Notes: a model not told the origin generated them from the letters alone. 38,404 nucleotides of DNA from Candidatus Uhrbacteria bacterium RIFOXYB12_FULL_58_10 (GCA_943357025.1 CALRGA010000003.1:1-38404), one strand, 5' to 3'; positions 1 through 25,282 are shown, counted from the stretch's first letter. Translations and numbers: made by a program.

Positions 1-43
1 ATTTGATGTGTCGGTCCGCCGGCATGTAGGGATAGTCGGGCAT
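1..43 (-). CDS. 5' end of a gene running off the window (MPDYPYMPADRHIK...); possibly a cytidine/dCMP-deaminase-family protein
   Basis: ATG at 43, 9 nt after the upstream TAA at 53-55, in the same - strand run as thyA-like/folA. Only 14 codons are visible; the deaminase idea rests on my recollection of YPYxPxxRxIxY N-termini in CPR deaminases and on context. Confidence 0.4.
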   Translation of the reverse strand, partial: MPDYPYMPADRHIK

Positions 44-52
44 AGGAAGAAA

Positions 53-508
53 TTATTTTTCTGTCACTTCCCCCTCGTGCTCGGCGTTCCATTGGTTGAC
101 GGATCGCTGGAGGACGTCGACGGCATGGGAGTCGAGGACGTGTGCCGGGCGTAGCTTTGACGGGTTGTTTGTCGCGTGATGGATCTTTGTCACGTGAAAA
201 AAACCGTTATCGTTCCATTTGTCGAACGCCACGCGGAGGATGATCGGCACGTCGATTCCTTTCCGGCCCGACGAAAGTCCGTTTCCGAACGCGACGATCT
301 GACCGGTCATCCGGTCCACCAGCGCGTTCGCCCCGGCCGCCGGATACTTCTTTCCCGCGACGGCCACCTCCCCCGCGTTCCCGCCGATCGATTCCGACAC
401 CAGCAGCCCCATCATCTCCCCGTTCATCTTCCCGACGTTCTCCGCGACGATCCGCGCCTTCTCGGATTCCGCGTCGATACCTGCCATGGCGTCGAATGAT
501 TCGGACAT
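53..508 (-). CDS. hypothetical protein (~151 aa)
   Basis: ORF 53..526; ATG at 508 lies 4 nt after the DHFR stop; no recognised motif. Confidence 0.7.
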   Translation of the reverse strand: MSESFDAMAGIDAESEKARIVAENVGKMNGEMMGLLVSESIGGNAGEVAVAGKKYPAAGANALVDRMTGQIVAFGNGLSSGRKGIDVPIILRVAFDKWNDNGFFHVTKIHHATNNPSKLRPAHVLDSHAVDVLQRSVNQWNAEHEGEVTEK

Positions 509-512
509 ATCG

Positions 513-1025
513 TTATTTCCGTTCAAAACAAAGCAGGACCCCGCCCCCGAGCGGCCTCGACTCGACCAGCTTCAGATCGATCCTCCCGAATCCATCCCCG
601 AGCGGCACGCCGGCTCCGAACAGGACGGGCTCGACGGTCAAAAACAGCTCGTCGACGAGGCCGGCCGCGAGGAATTGCGAGTAGACCGTCGCACCGCCGC
701 AAACCGCGAGGCCCGCGAGCCCCTTCGCCGAAAGTCGCGCGACCAGCTCGGCCGGCGTCTCCCGCGTCCACTCGACCCCGTCGCGCCCCTCGAATTTTTC
801 CGTCTCCGACCCGCCCGTCGACGACATCACGATCGTCCGGCGATCCTTCAGCGGCCGCCCGATCGTCTCGAACGTCTTCCGTCCCATCACGACCGCGCCG
901 ACCTCCTTCGTCTTCTCGACGAAAAACCTCGTGTCTTCCTTGCTCGTCCAGTCGAGCGACAGATGATTCGACGACTGCGCGATCTTTCCGTCCGCGGAAA
1001 TGGCGGCGATGAGGGTTATTTTCAT
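513..1025 (-). CDS. folA: dihydrofolate reductase (DHFR/RibD-C fold)
   Basis: MKITLIAAISADGKIA, DWTSKED, VMGRKTFETIGRPL, CGGATVY, VDELFLTVEP; ATGA overlap with the ThyA-like stop. Confidence 0.88.
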   Translation of the reverse strand: MKITLIAAISADGKIAQSSNHLSLDWTSKEDTRFFVEKTKEVGAVVMGRKTFETIGRPLKDRRTIVMSSTGGSETEKFEGRDGVEWTRETPAELVARLSAKGLAGLAVCGGATVYSQFLAAGLVDELFLTVEPVLFGAGVPLGDGFGRIDLKLVESRPLGGGVLLCFERK

Positions 1026-1855
1026 ACGGCGATTTGTACTTTCATCATCGGCGCTCCCGGCGAATACTGCGACTGGAACATCTCGACGAGCTCCGAGACG
1101 AGCGAGGCATCGGCGTCGAGGGCGCGTTGGAACGAGCGGGCCGGAAGGCGACAGAGGATCTCGGGATGCGCGACGGATTCGCGGGAAAGGATGTCCTCGA
1201 CGGCTTGGAACTGGTTCTCGTAGATGTGAGCGTGGGAGATGGAGATCGTGAGCTTGCCGACGGCCACGTCGAGCTCCTGGGCGAGCATAGCCTGGAGGAG
1301 GGCGAAGTCGGCGGTGTCGTTGGGGTTGCCGAGGACCATGTCGTTCGAGCGCATGATCATGTGGAGGTTGAGCTTTCCGCCGATGATGTTCGCCGTCCAG
1401 GTGAACGGGCACGGGACGTTTTTCTTTTTGGGCGCGCGCAGGCCGTCGCTGGACGGGTCCCACATCATGACGACGCCCTGCCGGCTGCTCGGCTCCTCGC
1501 GAAGGTGCTCGACGAGGTCGAGGAGCTGGTCGCGGCCGAAGTGGTGGCGCCAGCGGTAGCCGTAGGCGGTCTCGATGGTGCCGTCGTCCTCAAGGAAGCT
1601 GTCCCAGCCCTTGGTGAACTGCTGGAGGAATCCCGCGTGCTTGTGGCCGGCGATGAACCACACCGTCTCGGCGCAGAAGAACTTGGGGAACATCTTGCGG
1701 ACGGTGAGAAGCGGAAACCCCCTGGACGGCTCGATCTCGTAGGTGACCCCCGGGACGGCCCGCGTCGAAATTCCCGTCCGCTCGCTTTGGACGGTTTCGC
1801 CCTCCCGGTAGATGCGGCCGACGGTGTCGAGATAGAGGCGGTCAAAGGTGGTCAT
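1022..1855 (-). CDS. thyA: thymidylate synthase-fold enzyme, probable dCMP methylase (Asp at the Asn177 position)
   Basis: RTG, FPLLT, YGYRWR, DQL, catalytic PC (C149), RSND (R169), HIY; motif LGNPND rather than LGxPFN. Confidence 0.9.
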   Translation of the reverse strand: MTTFDRLYLDTVGRIYREGETVQSERTGISTRAVPGVTYEIEPSRGFPLLTVRKMFPKFFCAETVWFIAGHKHAGFLQQFTKGWDSFLEDDGTIETAYGYRWRHHFGRDQLLDLVEHLREEPSSRQGVVMMWDPSSDGLRAPKKKNVPCPFTWTANIIGGKLNLHMIMRSNDMVLGNPNDTADFALLQAMLAQELDVAVGKLTISISHAHIYENQFQAVEDILSRESVAHPEILCRLPARSFQRALDADASLVSELVEMFQSQYSPGAPMMKVQIAV

Positions 1856-1864
1856 ATCGCCCCC

Positions 1865-1915
1865 ATCCTACCAGACAAACCCCCTGTTTCCAACCGGGCC
1901 GATCTGGGCTAAGAT
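1865..1915. promoter_or_regulatory. back-to-back sigma70 promoters for thyA-like (-) and dut (+) with overlapping -35 boxes
   Basis: - strand TTGGAA(1893-1888)-17-TAGGAT(1870-1865, preceded by TG); + strand TTTCCA(1887-1892)-17-TAAGAT(1910-1915); each -10 is 9 nt from its ATG. Confidence 0.55.
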
Positions 1916-1924
1916 ACGTCCGTT

Positions 1925-2356
1925 ATGGACATCTCTGTGGATATCAAGAGGCTTGGCCCGGACGTGCCGGTCCCCGAGTACAAGACGATCGGCGCGATCG
2001 CGTTCGACATCGCGGTTTCCGAGGAAAAGACCATCCAGCCGGGCGAGACGGCATTTTTGTCGACGGGCCTGGTCGTCTGCACCCCGCCCGGGTACGGACT
2101 GATCCTCGCGGGACGATCCTCGAACGCCAAGAAACAGATTACGCTCGCGAACGGAATCGCGGTCATCGACCAGGATTACTGCGGGCCGGAAGACCAGCTG
2201 CTGCTTTCCGTCCGTAACGAGGGGTCGGCCGCCTATACGGTCGAGCGAGGCGAACGAATCGCGCAGGGACTCTTCGTCCCGATCGTCCGCGCGACGTTTC
2301 AGGACGTGGAGACTTTGTCCGCTCCCAGCCGCGGCGGATATGGAACGACCGGATAA
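1925..2356 (+). CDS. dut: trimeric dUTP diphosphatase
   Basis: All five motifs present: AFDI, GRSS, VIDQDYCG, ERIAQ, RGGYGTTG. Confidence 0.92.
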   Translation: MDISVDIKRLGPDVPVPEYKTIGAIAFDIAVSEEKTIQPGETAFLSTGLVVCTPPGYGLILAGRSSNAKKQITLANGIAVIDQDYCGPEDQLLLSVRNEGSAAYTVERGERIAQGLFVPIVRATFQDVETLSAPSRGGYGTTG

Positions 2357-2358
2357 TC

Positions 2359-2367
2359 TGGTATACT
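2359..2367 (+). promoter_or_regulatory. extended -10 promoter for tmk
   Basis: TGgTATACT right after the dut stop. Confidence 0.55.
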
Positions 2368-2371
2368 GAAG

Positions 2372-2449
2372 AGGTCAAAAGTCAAAGGTAAAAGGTAAAA
2401 AGTTAGGAAAATTCCAACCATTTGACCTTTGACACTTGACCTTTGACCT
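2372..2449. repeat. inverted repeat built from 7-nt units (GGTCAAA-like / TTTGACC-like)
   Basis: Left arm 2372-2400 AGGTCAAAAGTCAAAGGTAAAAGGTAAAA; right arm 2421-2449 TTTGACCTTTGACACTTGACCTTTGACCT; about 5 mismatches over 29 nt, 20-nt loop. Confidence 0.85.
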
Positions 2450-2453
2450 ACGT

Positions 2454-3164
2454 ATGCCGTCTCCTGGACGCTTCATCATGATCGACGGCATCGCGGGGAG
2501 CGGGAAATCGACCCTGCTTCGTGCCGCGGAAACGTGGGCCAGGGAGCGCGGACAGAAGGTGTTTGACATGCGGGAGTGGACCAAGTCGCACGCGGATCCG
2601 CCGACGTTCGACGAGGTGCGCGACTACGACGTGTTCTTCACCTACGAGCCGACGCGGCAGTGGGTGGGCGCCGCGATCCGCTTCGAGCTTTCCCGGACGG
2701 ACGTTCCGTACAACGGCGAGTCGCTCGCGCACGCGTTCGCGCTCGACCGGGAAATCATGTACAGGCGGCTCATCATTCCGGCGCTCGCGGCCGGCAAGAC
2801 GGTTTTCCAAGACCGCGGCGTGTGTACCTCCATCGTCTACCAGCCCATCATGCCCGGCGGCATCTCGCTCCTGCGCCTGCGCAAGCTGCCGGGAAACGCC
2901 CTGGCGCTCAGGCATCCGCCCACGGCGCTCATCATCACCGACCTCGACCCGGCCGTCGCGGCCGAACGCGTCAAGAAACGCGACGAAGAATCGAAAGGGG
3001 TGTTCGCGGACCTCGCGTTCCTCCGCCGCGTCACCAAGCGGTTCCGCTCCCGATGGTTCTCCTACCTCTTTCATCGCCTGGGCACCTCGGTCCACGCGTT
3101 CGACACCGACGTCCCGATGGACGAAATGGTCGCAAAGGCAAAAAAATTAATCGAATCGCTATGA
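2454..3164 (+). CDS. tmk: thymidylate (dTMP) kinase
   Basis: P-loop DGIAGSGKST, TYEPT, FALDR, QDRGVCTSIVYQ; next to dut/thyA. Confidence 0.88.
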   Translation: MPSPGRFIMIDGIAGSGKSTLLRAAETWARERGQKVFDMREWTKSHADPPTFDEVRDYDVFFTYEPTRQWVGAAIRFELSRTDVPYNGESLAHAFALDREIMYRRLIIPALAAGKTVFQDRGVCTSIVYQPIMPGGISLLRLRKLPGNALALRHPPTALIITDLDPAVAAERVKKRDEESKGVFADLAFLRRVTKRFRSRWFSYLFHRLGTSVHAFDTDVPMDEMVAKAKKLIESL

Positions 3165-21569: not shown

Positions 21570-21704
21570 ATTCAGCCACGAGCTTACCATTGTCGCGATC
21601 AAGATCAAAGGACGTCGGGGCGCGCTGACCCGATCTATCTAATATTTCTCATTTTCCTTAAAATACAAGGCGAACGAATGCCTATGAAGCCAAAGGGGAA
21701 TGAC

Positions 21705-23036
21705 ATGGAGACTCCGCGGGAACGCCCACCGGCCGCAACCGTGGAAACGGGCAAGCCGCCCGTCGAGAATCTGCCAAAGTCTCCGCCGTCCGCGGCGGAA
21801 CGACTTCTTGCCGTTTCAAAAAGACGGGAGTACGCGACGGGACAGTCGAAACTCGTGCGCAAGGCAATCGAGGGCGATTTGAATCTGTACGAAATGCATC
21901 GAAAAAAATACGGCCTTCCTCCGGATATACGCCCCACTCCCGCAAGCCTGGCAAACCAGGAACGCGCGGCGTCGCTCGACGGGCAAGCCGCAGAAACGAC
22001 TCGGAAGGAGCGCGGTCTGCGCCGTCTCAACTCTGCGATCGATTCCATAAAGCCAATGAACGACCCGACCGTCATCGAGAAGCACAATCGGCTTTTTCCA
22101 GATCCCAAGGATAATCCAGCCGCTCCGCAGTATTTGGTTATCGATCGACCGAAGGGAACCATTTTTGGCGTCAGCCACGGGAAGAATCCCGAAGGCTCTA
22201 CGATCCAGAAGCTGTACGAGACGATCCCATCGGTTGCCGAAATGCCCGCCAACCTCGTCTTCATGGTCGAGGGCGAGCACAGCGGAATCAACCGCGAAGA
22301 AGCGCTAAAGCGGGTCGAAAAAATGACAAGCCGCGACGAGGCCGTCAAAAAATACGGCGAAAGCGGCGCGGCGTTTTGGGCCGTGAAGGAGGCGAACGAC
22401 GCGGGAAAAACAGTTGAGATTAATTCGCCGGAGGCTCCGAACGCATGGATCATCGACCGGGTATCCAACAAGAACGCGGAGGACATCGCGCTATACCTGA
22501 CGCTCCGACAGTTTACGTCGGACATCGGGCAGGCCAAGGACGGACCGACCGCGGAAGAACGGCTAGAGAAGTTCGTCAGGACGTTCGTCCATGTCCAGCG
22601 CACGACGGGCGTGGACTGGATGAAAAACGCGTCGGTCGACGAATATACAAATGTGAAAGACAATCCGGTTGCGCTTAATTCTTGGCTGAAGAAAAAGGCC
22701 AGCGAGTTTCTCGAAGGAATGAACGCGCGGCTCATGTCAGAGGGACTCGTTGACAAACAGATCGTCCCGGACGTCGACGCACTCATTAACGTCGACCTAG
22801 AGCGCATTTCAATGAGAGACATCAACGAGCTGCACTCCCCAATGGACACGGGAAAACGCGATTCGATCATCAACAAAATCTCGACCGAATGGAACGGCGC
22901 GCGCGACCGGTTCCTCGTCGAGCAGATCGCCAAGGCGGTCGACGATGGCAAGAAGCCGTTTGTGATCTTCGGCGGGGCGCACGTGGCAAGCATTGAGAAG
23001 GCGGTTGACACGCTGCTGAAGGGGGATGACGAGTAG
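21705..23036 (+). CDS. hypothetical protein with a C-terminal TraB/GumN/TIKI (EreA/ChaN)-like domain
   Basis: 3' part of ORF 19320..23036 (alternative ATGs 21678, 21684); motifs FGVSHG, FMVEG, ARDRFLVEQI, FVIFGGAHV. Confidence 0.65.
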   Translation: METPRERPPAATVETGKPPVENLPKSPPSAAERLLAVSKRREYATGQSKLVRKAIEGDLNLYEMHRKKYGLPPDIRPTPASLANQERAASLDGQAAETTRKERGLRRLNSAIDSIKPMNDPTVIEKHNRLFPDPKDNPAAPQYLVIDRPKGTIFGVSHGKNPEGSTIQKLYETIPSVAEMPANLVFMVEGEHSGINREEALKRVEKMTSRDEAVKKYGESGAAFWAVKEANDAGKTVEINSPEAPNAWIIDRVSNKNAEDIALYLTLRQFTSDIGQAKDGPTAEERLEKFVRTFVHVQRTTGVDWMKNASVDEYTNVKDNPVALNSWLKKKASEFLEGMNARLMSEGLVDKQIVPDVDALINVDLERISMRDINELHSPMDTGKRDSIINKISTEWNGARDRFLVEQIAKAVDDGKKPFVIFGGAHVASIEKAVDTLLKGDDE

Positions 23037-23069
23037 AAACAACCAAAAAAGTACGATATACTGTCCGAT

Positions 23070-23261
23070 ATGGAACGAACACCCGAGGAAATTGTCGCGG
23101 AAACGATACGGATATCGAAGGAATACGATCAAAAGATGGCGGAGTTGGACCGGCAGCGGAAGGAGGTTATAGCCACGACCGTCCATGCGGCGGAACAGAG
23201 AGGGGTTTCGAAGGTGCGGGCGTTTATCCTCGGCCTATTCAATCGTAAGCAAGACGTATGA
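23070..23261 (+). CDS. small helical protein (63 aa), paralogue of 25293..25469
   Basis: TATACT 7 nt upstream of the ATG; ATGA overlap with the next gene. Confidence 0.7.
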   Translation: MERTPEEIVAETIRISKEYDQKMAELDRQRKEVIATTVHAAEQRGVSKVRAFILGLFNRKQDV

Positions 23262-23728
23262 GCGATATCGAGAACGTCGAGGCGCGCGCGGCGGCACCCG
23301 CCGAAACGCAGAAACCCACCGTGGAAAACAAGGAAGGACAGGTTCCCAACCCGGACAAGCTGGCAGACATCGACGAGCCAAAGTCCGTCGATCAGTTCGG
23401 GCAGTATTACAGGGATCTTCTCAATGGAACGGATCACTCGCTGGAGCGACAAAAGGAAGCGGCCCAAAAAGTGAACGAGCTGGCATTAAAACACGCGGAC
23501 AGGCAGGCGATCCAGTCGAAGATGTTCATAAAGAACTCAACGGAAACGGTCTACATGGCCCTTGGGAGGATCGGCGACGAGCTCAACGCGGGAGCGGACG
23601 CCGAGACGAAGCTCGGGGAGATCCAGGCCGTCATGGACAGCCTGTTGGCCGAGCAGCGCGAAAAGCTGAACGCCTTGAAGGTAGACGCCCCGGAGGCTGC
23701 CGACGAGGAAACCGAACAGGCCGCGTAA
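23258..23728 (+). CDS. hypothetical acidic helical protein (156 aa)
   Basis: Coupled start, high-GC3 codon usage. Confidence 0.7.
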   Translation: MSDIENVEARAAAPAETQKPTVENKEGQVPNPDKLADIDEPKSVDQFGQYYRDLLNGTDHSLERQKEAAQKVNELALKHADRQAIQSKMFIKNSTETVYMALGRIGDELNAGADAETKLGEIQAVMDSLLAEQREKLNALKVDAPEAADEETEQAA

Positions 23729-23749
23729 CTATTCTCATAACCCGAACGT

Positions 23750-24334
23750 ATGAACGCACGAAAACCCGAGGGATTTCAGCCAAGCATGGAAGTGCCGGAA
23801 CCGCCGCAAACGAAGGAGGATAGCGACGCGCGGGGGGTTTATAATGATTTCATGAAGGCTGGAGACAAAATCAATGACGCGGCGGCGAGGATGGAAGCCC
23901 AGCGCGCGCAGTACGACGCGATCCAGGCGAAGATGAACGCGCCGAAGGTCGTGAAGAGCGCCTGGCAGCGCGGGATGGACGCGATCGGCGCAAAGATGGC
24001 CGAGCTGAAGAAAAAGACGATGGAGGCCGTCACGGGCGTGAAGCAGGACGCGTTCGAGGAGATGATGACGAATCCCGCGTTTGACGTCCCGAAGAAATTT
24101 GATGACGCTGACAACGATTTCTTCGCGAAGGGCGACCGGATGAATTCCGAGGCCGCTGAGCGCGCGCAGTACGACTCGATGCAAAAGAAGATCAAGGCGC
24201 AGGAGAATCGCAACACGAAGCCGGCGAGCGAACTGACGGGCGATTTCAAGGAGATGATGGACAGCCCGGATTGGCAGATCAAGCCGGCCGCGGAAACGGC
24301 CGAGGAATCCAAGGACGACAAGGCCGCCGCCTAA
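23750..24334 (+). CDS. hypothetical hydrophilic protein with an internal repeat (194 aa)
   Basis: DFMKAGDKIN...RAQYDAIQAKMNA and DFFAKGDRMN...RAQYDSMQKKIKA. Confidence 0.72.
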   Translation: MNARKPEGFQPSMEVPEPPQTKEDSDARGVYNDFMKAGDKINDAAARMEAQRAQYDAIQAKMNAPKVVKSAWQRGMDAIGAKMAELKKKTMEAVTGVKQDAFEEMMTNPAFDVPKKFDDADNDFFAKGDRMNSEAAERAQYDSMQKKIKAQENRNTKPASELTGDFKEMMDSPDWQIKPAAETAEESKDDKAAA

Positions 24335-24343
24335 CCGCCGACT

Positions 24344-25282
24344 ATGCCTACGGACCCGCGCGTCGCAGAGCTCCCTGGATTCGTCCTGCTTCGGGACAAA
24401 CTCCCTCGATTCCATGACGAAGTCGCGCGGCTTGTCGCGTCGAGCTCGTTCGGGCTGCGCCCGAACGGGCCGGCGCTCGACCAGATGGCCGAGTTTATTG
24501 AGCCGGCCGAGCTTGAGGTTTTCGCCGGGGCGATCGACCTGTTCTACGAGAAGCACGCCTGGCCGAGGACGACGCTCATTTCCCTTCTTCAGAACTCACG
24601 GCTGTCGCGCGCCGCTCTGATCGACGGCGACCGATTCCCGACGGCCTACCGCAACGTCGTCGAGCAGCTCGACGAGCTTTTGCAATTCAAGCACCTCTGG
24701 ACCGCGCACGGTTCCGTCTCCGACCTGGTCGCGACGATTGTCAACCAGCCCGCGTTCGCTCGGCTCGACGGCGCCTCGCTTGGCAAGCTCGTCTACGCGC
24801 TCAAGAACCAGGCCGACCAGGAATCACTCGCCGCGGCCGAGTTCTCCGTGCTCCTCGCCGTCGACTGGGTGCGAAACGCCGTGCCATCGACCACGCTCGC
24901 CGACCTCGTGGCGCAGCGAATGGTCGAGCCCGCCGTCGCGGCCGAACTTCTCAAGAAGGTCGCCGAAACGGACAAATATCCCTTCTTTCAAATCGACCTC
25001 CTCGCCCACGTCCTCGAGTCCGTCGACGAGCCCGCGTTCCGCTCCTATCTCCTCGGCCCGCGGACCGGGACGCTTTCGACGACGTCCCTCGACAAGCTGC
25101 TCCTCCGCCTCGCCCAGTCGAACCCGAACGGATTCGCGAAACTGTTCCTCCGCGGCCGATCGACGTTCAAAAAGAAATTCCAGCCGGCCGGAATGTTTAC
25201 GAGCGAGAAGGAAATCTACCGACTCTGCTGGGGCAAGGTCGGCCTCTGGGACAAGCTGATGGCAACCTTTTTTCCCGGCTAA
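24344..25282 (+). CDS. hypothetical alpha-helical protein (312 aa)
   Basis: Tight spacing with neighbours; Leu/Ala-rich helices; no recognised motif. Confidence 0.72.
   Translation: MPTDPRVAELPGFVLLRDKLPRFHDEVARLVASSSFGLRPNGPALDQMAEFIEPAELEVFAGAIDLFYEKHAWPRTTLISLLQNSRLSRAALIDGDRFPTAYRNVVEQLDELLQFKHLWTAHGSVSDLVATIVNQPAFARLDGASLGKLVYALKNQADQESLAAAEFSVLLAVDWVRNAVPSTTLADLVAQRMVEPAVAAELLKKVAETDKYPFFQIDLLAHVLESVDEPAFRSYLLGPRTGTLSTTSLDKLLLRLAQSNPNGFAKLFLRGRSTFKKKFQPAGMFTSEKEIYRLCWGKVGLWDKLMATFFPG

Follow-up and report, generated by a model that had tools for sequence, protein, structure and literature searches.

In our study, the first 3.2 kb of a contig (C3; GCA_943357025.1, CALRGA010000003.1:1-38404) of Candidatus Uhrbacteria bacterium RIFOXYB12_FULL_58_10 was found to contain an unusual homologue of thymidylate synthase (TS), named P0001. 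The whole contig of 38,404 nucleotides is called the window; the source genome (G000) comprises 0.89 Mb in 63 contigs and is 96.3% complete. P0001 contains an aspartate at the pyrimidine selector site of the enzyme, where ThyA of E. coli contains Asn177. We propose that the organism converts deoxycytidine triphosphate (dCTP) to the monophosphate (dCMP), dCMP to 5-methyl-dCMP and 5-methyl-dCMP to thymidine monophosphate (dTMP), that deoxyuridine monophosphate (dUMP) is not an intermediate, and that this is probably its only de novo route to thymidine triphosphate (dTTP). The conserved module consists of the Asp-type TS, a dihydrofolate reductase (DHFR), a deaminase of a separate clade (HWWCC type), a DCD-like gene devoid of the catalytic glutamate, and the adjoining dut and tmk. 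The comparison suggests a dCMP-first module that serves cells as the sole thymidylate route, of a kind previously described in a few phages.

P0001 contained the TS fold PF00303, with Cys149 aligned to the catalytic Cys146 of E. coli ThyA; its further landmarks were Pro150, Arg169, Asp172 and Asp180, and the motif reads RSNDMVLGNPND. Asp180 was found opposite Asn177, and Pro150 opposite His147, both by phmmer against three solved thymidylate synthases and by MAFFT against E. coli ThyA (NC_000913). The first-pass annotation, made from the sequence alone, had claimed a constant +3 offset to E. coli ThyA, an Asp at the Asn177 site and the change of PCH to PCP. Between Arg166/Arg169 and the 177 site the alignment was gap-free, which confirms the offset and leaves no Asn to fill the selector site; the direct reading of the codons agreed with both alignments. 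The same annotation had given the motif of the T4 dCMP hydroxymethylase correctly, gp42 (NC_000866) being found to read RSNDVVFGFRND. Since both Pro150 and Asp180 occur in all 120 close homologues (59-100% identity), they are not due to chance or sequencing error. By their source names, close homologues belong to Candidatus Uhrbacteria and Patescibacteria. Among the 150 best representatives of 50% clusters, the selector site contained Asp in 126, Asn in 20 and a gap in 4. P0001 is devoid of the Asn177 and the His147 of canonical ThyA, and His was present at the latter site in 13 of 13 Asn-type Patescibacteria sequences checked. According to the accessible text of a study of phage contigs, positions 177 and 147 are the top two discriminators between TS homologues of cytosine-modified and unmodified phages, and mutagenesis cited there turned TS into a dCMP methylase by N177D / N229D (eLife 2021, PMC8670742). 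P0001 has the cytosine-type residue at both discriminating positions, as judged from the alignment. Of the two arginines that bind phosphate (the RR pair), the second (E. coli R127) was replaced by Gln126 (window 1478-1480); this site contained Gln in 116 of the 120 close homologues and, among 74 TS sequences linked to the deaminase described below, His in 57 and Gln in 12.

P0001 was the only PF00303 match in the source genome. The search for a canonical thyA or thyX, which the first-pass annotation had put forward as a check, returned no other TS and no ThyX from this 96.3%-complete genome, and thymidine kinase and deoxynucleoside kinase (dNK) were likewise without a match. ThyX was found in none of the 12 Asp-type genomes of the class sample given below. 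Ribonucleotide reductase and serine hydroxymethyltransferase (SHMT) were present in the source genome; no match was found there for a Dcm-type C5 DNA methyltransferase or for cytidylate kinase (PF02224), and the control search with the latter matched 14 of 14 reference genomes. In a scan of the phylum, very weak PF00303 matches (E about 1e-8 to 1e-22) were seen in about 35 Patescibacteria genomes, such as G046, G001, G051 and G098, and the match of G046 sits in a frame of 510 amino acids; the tally includes the unpublished genome G154.

The deaminase that the first-pass annotation had postulated was found to exist, to start at position 43 of the window and to co-vary strictly with the Asp-type TS. 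The sole PF00383 match in the source genome sits at the extreme end of contig C7, with its 5' end cut off. The metagenome contig L193 (83-88% nucleotide identity) contained the gene order tmk, dut / TS, DHFR, ORF3, deaminase, where ORF3 is an open reading frame (ORF), and blastn of this contig on the source genome placed L193 5934 at C3:8 and L193 6000 at C7:28495. By this collinearity the end of C7 abuts the start of the window, with about 65 bases missing. Window 43..2, on the minus strand, translates to MPDYPYMPADRHIK, which matches the N-termini of the deaminases of L193, L194, L196 and L197 and the YPY motif of the family. The deaminase gene therefore starts inside the interval covered by the first-pass annotation and closes the TS operon; it continues on C7 from G000:C7:28495 downwards. 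The protein contained the HAE and CEPC zinc motifs (H-x-E and C-x-x-C) of the dCMP-deaminase family and scored 32.2 bits with PF00383 (cut-off 25), whereas with the ComEB/dCMP-deaminase equivalog TIGR02571 it scored 19.9 bits against a cut-off of 219.45. In the family alignment (A1) it forms a separate clade with an invariant HWW.C..C motif. Phage relatives were only weak (tblastn, 15 records, best E 3e-7). For P0121, the nearest cluster representative, a deaminase identity of the first 190 residues was considered and ruled out, with an hhalign probability of 0.1 against A1 and no Pfam match. The C-terminal part of the deaminase of the source genome, about 90 residues (G000:C7:27880-28150), is a Cys-containing extension that is common to L193-L199 and absent in the orthologues of G434, G570, G443 and G542.

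The types of TS and deaminase were compared in a class sample of 201 genomes. Twelve genomes contained an orthologue of P0001 (E <= 1.1e-74, 45-100% identity), the Asp-type TS, and the 11 besides the source genome, typed by residue, all read PCP...RS[NQ]D...D. The next 18 P0001 matches were all Asn-type, the typing covering 18 of the 92 class genomes with weaker matches. Strong matches of profile A1 (E <= 8.2e-26) were present in 8 of the 201 genomes, all of them Asp-type, and in none of the other 189; the next best match, at 6.3e-16, came from ordinary dCMP deaminases. The deaminase was located <=2 kb from the TS in 5 of the 8 genomes having both. The bare presence of PF00383 failed as a discriminator (11 of 12 Asp-type against 12 of 18 Asn-type genomes), several of the matches being RibD, Cdd or TadA-like, and only the clade-specific profile A1 separated the Asp-type genomes from the others. 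Back-translated A1 patterns found 409 deaminase loci in GTDB species genomes, and the 80 best were examined. Among these 80, a TS was present within 6 kb in 74, and it contained Asp at the selector site in 74 of 74, Asn in none, and PCP in 71. Nearly all of the best 80 loci were from Patescibacteria, namely from the Falkow-, Magasanik-, Moran-, Nomura-, Kaiser- and Adlerbacteria lineages and further from Campbell-, Taylor-, Wildermuth- and Uhrbacteria and Paceibacteria, with some third-party annotation (TPA) assemblies labelled otherwise. The deaminase of the source genome found 61 metagenome loci, of which 41 contained a TS in the flank; Asp was present in 41 of 42 ORFs, with a gap in one. 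Natural fusions were also seen: an Asp-type TS is joined to a dCMP deaminase domain in P0142, to a PRA-PH/MazG-like pyrophosphohydrolase in P0170 and to an HNH endonuclease domain in P0144.

Three Asp-type genomes devoid of the HWWCC deaminase (G440, G451 and G540) contained, between DHFR and the next gene of the module, a protein of 585-590 amino acids, in which an amidohydrolase resembling TRZ/ATZ and 5'-deoxyadenosine deaminase is fused to a nucleoside-2-deoxyribosyltransferase-like domain. Full-length orthologues of this fusion were found only in these three among the 201 genomes (E <= 1.4e-138; next best 6.5e-40). Two sister genomes, G360 and G528, which belong to the same taxonomic order as the source genome, contained the same cluster with an Asn-type ThyA. 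In G360 the order was tmk, dut / ThyA, DHFR, with orthologues of tmk (E 8.3e-59), dut (E 2e-41) and DHFR (E 4e-56). The cluster of G528 contained a DCD-like gene devoid of the Glu (65% identical), an ordinary dCMP deaminase, DHFR, the Asn-type ThyA, dut and tmk, and its DHFR orthologue beside the ThyA scored 140.7 bits. Since tmk, dut and DHFR are kept in both, the two states differ by the pair of TS type and deaminase type. This paired swap fits two putative dCMP-centred routes, in which methylation and deamination would come in opposite order. Two Asn-type ThyA genes were seen in G528, the module copy (L291, G528:C6) and a copy on G528:C22 (L292) near a weak DHFR-like gene.

The DCD-like gene of the source genome is located outside the window, 3.3 kb from the deaminase. 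Its likeness to the Dcd / Dcd:Dut family lies in the PF22769 match (93 bits) and in the nearest solved structure, the Dcd:dut of M. tuberculosis (2qxx). Unlike that family, the protein contained Pro in place of the catalytic Glu of the ..LEL.N motif, when aligned to the M. tuberculosis enzyme, and it scored below the cut-off of the dCTP-deaminase model TIGR02274 (89.3 vs 92.8 bits). Strong matches (E <= 1.0e-29) were found in 13 of the 201 genomes, comprising all 12 Asp-type genomes and G528, and the next best match was at 9.0e-15. Pro was present at the Glu site in all full-length copies from the 13 genomes, whereas the other 17 Dcd homologues of the class contained Glu (LEL/LEM) in 15 and FGL in 2. 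The gene is mostly inside the module, with the order TS, DHFR, DCD-like, deaminase in G570, G582, G434 and G443. We infer that the DCD-like protein may be a non-deaminating dCTP diphosphatase that supplies dCMP, and this is the least secure step of the pathway.

In the proposed pathway, which we consider likely, the DCD-like protein would hydrolyse dCTP to dCMP. The ThyA homologue with Asp180 and Pro150 would then methylate C5 of dCMP with 5,10-methylene-tetrahydrofolate, giving 5-methyl-dCMP and dihydrofolate. The coupled DHFR-like enzyme would regenerate tetrahydrofolate (THF), to be reloaded by the SHMT encoded elsewhere in the genome. The HWWCC deaminase is predicted to turn a nucleotide of 5-methylcytosine into that of thymine, the most likely reaction being from 5-methyl-dCMP to dTMP, and Tmk would phosphorylate the dTMP; Dut would only keep dUTP out of DNA. 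The first-pass annotation had suggested the route from dCMP through 5-methyl-dCMP and its deamination to dTMP and Tmk; comparative genomics supports each of these steps as a prediction and extends the route to a putative module of four to six genes. In human cells, 5-methyl-dCMP is known to be deaminated to dTMP, according to the accessible part of the source (PMC9594043).

The product of P0001 depends on whether it is a methylase or a hydroxymethylase. The published hydroxymethylase signature, as given in the accessible text of the source, is a carboxylate three residues before the catalytic Cys (Cys-3; the T4 mutant D145N is inactive), Ser/Thr at the position two before the active-site Tyr (Tyr-2), and the absence of the C-terminal tail, which is missing from T4 dCMP hydroxymethylase and closes off the site so that hydride can be transferred; the folate product of hydroxymethylases is THF and that of TS is dihydrofolate, hence the need of TS for DHFR (PMC6400193). 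The motif at Cys-3 was NVPCPF in P0001 and NVPCPT in the enzyme of phage Xp12, NVPCP being shared, as against DFMC in T4 gp42, DRPC in SPO1 gp29 and LAPCH in E. coli. All 120 close homologues contained Asn at Cys-3; the 74 deaminase-linked TS contained N there in 69 cases, P in 3 and L in 2, never D or E. A ThyA-like C-terminal tail was present in P0001 (...KVQIAV vs ...KAPVAI in E. coli), and relatives ended in ...IKG[ML]KIVL, as read by eye from alignments. A DHFR-like gene was found beside the TS in all 11 other Asp-type class genomes, one of them as a partial match at the locus edge. In the window the TS stop overlaps the DHFR-like ATG as ATGA at 1025-1022 in the sequence read directly, as expected from the translational coupling that the first-pass annotation had described. 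P0001 may still be likened to a dCMP (or CMP) hydroxymethylase of the T4 gp42/MilA kind, giving 5-hydroxymethyl-cytosine nucleotides, by its Asp at the 177 site, by an RSND motif the same as that of gp42 and by Thr96 at Tyr-2, which could mimic the Ser/Thr of the signature. However, the Tyr-2 residue varies across the family (T 90, A 20, C 8, S 2 of 120). As judged from its residues and gene context, P0001 does not carry the published signature, and the hydroxymethylase reading was rejected as highly improbable on the Asn at Cys-3, the tail and the coupling to a DHFR that hydroxymethylases do not need.

Several points weigh against the proposed pathway of methylation before deamination. The chemistry of the module is deduced wholly from residues and gene context. 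P0001 scored above the cut-off of the NCBI thymidylate-synthase model TIGR03284 (120.2 vs 108.35 bits), and the Asp-type clade contained Gln or His at the second phosphate-binding Arg, which Xp12 and canonical ThyA retain. The dut gene in the cluster and the Dcd-family gene nearby are parts of the ordinary route from dCTP through dUTP to dUMP. G427, a complete Asp-type genome in a single contig, contained neither of the two cluster deaminases and only a Cdd elsewhere. A TS-fold paralogue was present in G427 in the deaminase slot, with Tyr in place of the catalytic Cys (PPYQFF); it was found only in G427 among 5 genomes searched, and it counts against a universal requirement for the deaminase. 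Among the best 80 deaminase loci of species genomes, 6 showed no TS in the flank, and 20 of the 61 metagenome loci, mostly short contigs, were without one. Joint horizontal transfer of a single module could partly explain the co-occurrence. In a quick IQ-TREE analysis of 159 rows, Xp12 and the related phage Mallos fell in a group of 87 rows and P0001 in a group of 36 rows, that is, outside the Xp12 clade, though the backbone was poorly supported; 65 of 156 inner branches were open, which left the relations of three big groups unresolved. The group of 36 rows also contained SPO1 gp29 as a long branch, and SPO1 gp29 is a dUMP hydroxymethylase. The one characterised phage deaminase, mSCD-B5, acts on 5-methyl-dCTP and showed no activity on 5-methyl-dCMP, according to the accessible text of a preprint from New England Biolabs (NEB) (bioRxiv 10.1101/2024.12.05.627091).

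A rival reading is an ordinary dUMP-methylating TS that tolerates Asp and Pro and is fed with dUMP by an ordinary dCMP deaminase. P0001 occupies the exact slot that canonical ThyA has in G360 and G528, where DHFR, dut and tmk are likewise its neighbours, passes the thymidylate-synthase model and has dut within its cluster, and canonical dCMP deaminases also cluster with Asn-type ThyA (G502, G519, G557, G472). However, the Asp/Pro pair co-varies strictly with the special deaminase clade (8/12 vs 0/189 genomes; 74/74 loci), a non-orthologous deaminase occupies the same slot in three more genomes, and the Dcd homologue is devoid of the catalytic Glu, so the usual source of dUTP is missing. In the accessible texts, the Asn to Asp change shifts the preference to dCMP (mutagenesis cited in PMC8670742) and the nearest characterised NVPCP...D relatives, of the Xp12 type, make 5-methyl-dCMP (10.1101/2024.12.05.627091). 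We consider an ordinary TS to be unlikely. A methylase of dCMP could instead serve DNA modification: 5-methyl-dCMP would be raised to 5-methyl-dCTP to replace some or all of the genomic cytosine, as in Xp12, and the deaminase would siphon off a part for thymidine. The toolkit resembles that of Xp12-like phages (dCMP methylase, DHFR, deaminase and a putative dCTP-hydrolysing enzyme), the source genome gave no match for a Dcm-type methyltransferase, and mSCD-B5 works at the triphosphate level in the accessible text of the preprint (10.1101/2024.12.05.627091). As to the phosphorylation level at which the deamination would take place here, the tmk of the cluster and the lack of a cytidylate kinase match (control 14/14) would favour the monophosphate. 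The same lack stands against the formation of 5-methyl-dCTP, tmk fits dTMP as the product, and the Asn-type sisters have orthologues of tmk, dut, DHFR and the DCD-like gene, so there is no sign of re-tooling for 5-methylcytosine. This diversion to DNA is in our estimate decidedly unlikely, and very unlikely is its fullest form, in which 5-methyl-dCTP from the pool replaces most or all genomic cytosine in these Patescibacteria; such genome-wide 5-methylcytosine drawn from the nucleotide pool would be a first among cellular organisms, and it might, for instance, protect the DNA from nucleases of a host or of phages.

If the pathway through 5-methyl-dCMP to dTMP is true, widespread ultra-small bacteria would use a third thymidylate arrangement beside ThyA and ThyX, in which methylation precedes deamination. 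A systematic misannotation would be corrected, because the source names label the homologues as 'thymidylate synthase', and the metabolic models of Candidate Phyla Radiation (CPR) bacteria would change. Cellular primary metabolism would also be tied to the DNA-modification toolkit of phages, having either supplied it or drawn from it. The HWWCC deaminase and the amidohydrolase fusion would each represent a new family of deaminases that are candidates for 5-methylcytosine selectivity, such enzymes being in use for methylation sequencing according to the accessible text of the preprint (10.1101/2024.12.05.627091), and a new activity, that of a dCTP diphosphatase, is predicted for the Dcd homologue without Glu.

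The first 3.2 kb of the window contained two divergent transcription units, the TS operon on the minus strand and dut-tmk on the plus strand (Table 1), and the same divergent arrangement was found in G360 (L047), G528 (L291) and the metagenome contig L193. The families of dut and the tmk-like gene were confirmed by Pfam and NCBIfam, both scoring slightly below the NCBI equivalog cut-offs. ORF3 had neither a Pfam nor an NCBIfam match, and its homologues were found in only 2 of the 61 related metagenome loci (L193, 170.7 bits; L226, 53.5 bits). A prophage or mobile island was ruled out, because G360 and G528 carry their Asn-type cluster at the same place in the chromosome, with orthologous genes next to it. 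The gatB gene adjoins the cluster in the window, in G427 and in G451. Farther along, downstream of dnaE, the region 21600-24400 of the window showed a lower G+C content (0.566), a strong A-over-T skew (0.30) and ORFs rich in Lys and Glu. No tRNA genes were found across the whole window.

Table 1. Features of the thymidylate module in the window and of related loci (positions without a prefix refer to the window)
Feature	Position	Strand	Remarks
HWWCC-type deaminase gene start	1..43	-	first 14 codons, MPDYPYMPADRHIK; ATG 43-41, 9 nt past ORF3 stop (55-53)
ORF3, family-less	53..508	-	151 aa; between DHFR and deaminase; ATG 4 nt past DHFR stop
DHFR-like gene	513..1025	-	170 aa; PF01872 (RibD_C) 78.5 bits, PF00186 (DHFR_1) 65.1 bits
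Asp-type TS homologue P0001	1022..1855	-	277 aa; PF00303 E 7.2e-54
Codon GAC, Asp180	1316..1318	-	E. coli Asn177 site, pyrimidine selector; codon read directly, alignments
Codon CCG, Pro150	1406..1408	-	E. coli His147 site; codon read directly
Codon AAC, Asn146	1418..1420	-	Cys149 minus 3; Asp or Glu at the equivalent site of hydroxymethylases
Divergent intergenic region	1856..1924	.	69 bp; separates TS operon from dut-tmk; gene coordinates
dut, dUTP diphosphatase	1925..2356	+	143 aa; PF00692 E 6.4e-18; TIGR00576 94.3 bits (cut-off 102.55)
tmk-like gene, dTMP kinase	2436..3164	+	242 aa from TTG start; PF02223 E 6.4e-20; TIGR00041 79.6 bits (cut-off 83.25)
DCD-like gene (Dcd family)	G000:C7:23970-24617	+	outside window; 3.3 kb from deaminase
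Amidohydrolase fusion, G440	L294:3-1493		
Amidohydrolase fusion, G451	L266:2148-3620		
Amidohydrolase fusion, G540	L264:2259-3644		
TS-fold paralogue of G427	L293:3366-4388 = G427:C1:22368-23387	-	340 aa; PF00303 29.5 bits; between DHFR and DCD-like gene

No description of such a module in a cellular organism was found in the literature searched, the coverage of which was limited. The first-pass annotation had stated that a route of this kind was proposed for Parcubacteria; the same literature yielded no such paper for Parcubacteria or CPR, and two CPR papers that mention thyA treat the gene, in their accessible parts, as an ordinary thymidylate synthase. With canonical ThyA (EC 2.1.1.45) and FolA, the system shares the PF00303 fold, the C-terminal tail, the coupling to DHFR and the slot in the sister genomes, and P0001 keeps the equivalents of Cys146, Glu58, Tyr94, Arg166, Asp169, His207 and Tyr209. 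P0001 differs from ThyA by Asn177->Asp, His147->Pro, Leu143->Asn and Arg127->Gln, and the partner deaminase is also different. With the dCMP hydroxymethylase gp42 of T4, P0001 shares the Asp at the selector site, the RSND motif and the catalytic Cys. Unlike P0001, gp42 contains Asp at Cys-3, has no tail, releases THF and has no DHFR partner; it sits on a very long tree branch far from the P0001 clade.

The closest likeness was found with the Xp12 type. The top-scoring phage matches of P0001 were the TS homologues of Xp12-like phages, that of Mallos being 37% identical to P0001 and 63.7% identical to that of Xp12. The motif of P0001 is RSND..P[HFNAS]D whereas that of the Xp12 type is RSSD..LPYD, the two fall in separate clades, and the Xp12 type keeps the second Arg of the RR pair where the Patescibacteria clade contains Gln or His. 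P0001 is encoded on the chromosome of a cellular organism as its sole TS, and the HWWCC deaminase belongs to a different clade. The putative dCTP-hydrolysing partner of the Xp12 type is a MazG/PRA-PH or HAD protein, whereas here it would be the Dcd homologue without Glu. The DNA of phage Xp12 contains 5-methylcytosine, whereas for the Patescibacteria an entry of 5-methylcytosine into DNA is hypothetical. Like P0001, the enzymes of Xp12, Mallos and Pseudomonas phage PaMx74 contain Asp and Pro at the 177 and 147 sites and the NVPCP motif, with no carboxylate at Cys-3, and the clusters of Xp12 and Mallos likewise contain TS, a deaminase gene of the dCMP-deaminase family and DHFR. In the accessible text of the preprint, 5 of 7 tested phage Asp-type TS homologues, plus the Xp12 enzyme, made 5-methyl-dCMP, and cis-encoded phage deaminases prefer 5-methyl- or 5-hydroxymethyl-cytosine and supply thymidine nucleotides from 5-methyl-dC nucleotides (10.1101/2024.12.05.627091). 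Both the chemistry and the logic are thus already known from phages, and the same logic, the making of thymidine nucleotides by deaminating 5-methyl-dC nucleotides, is here proposed for cells.

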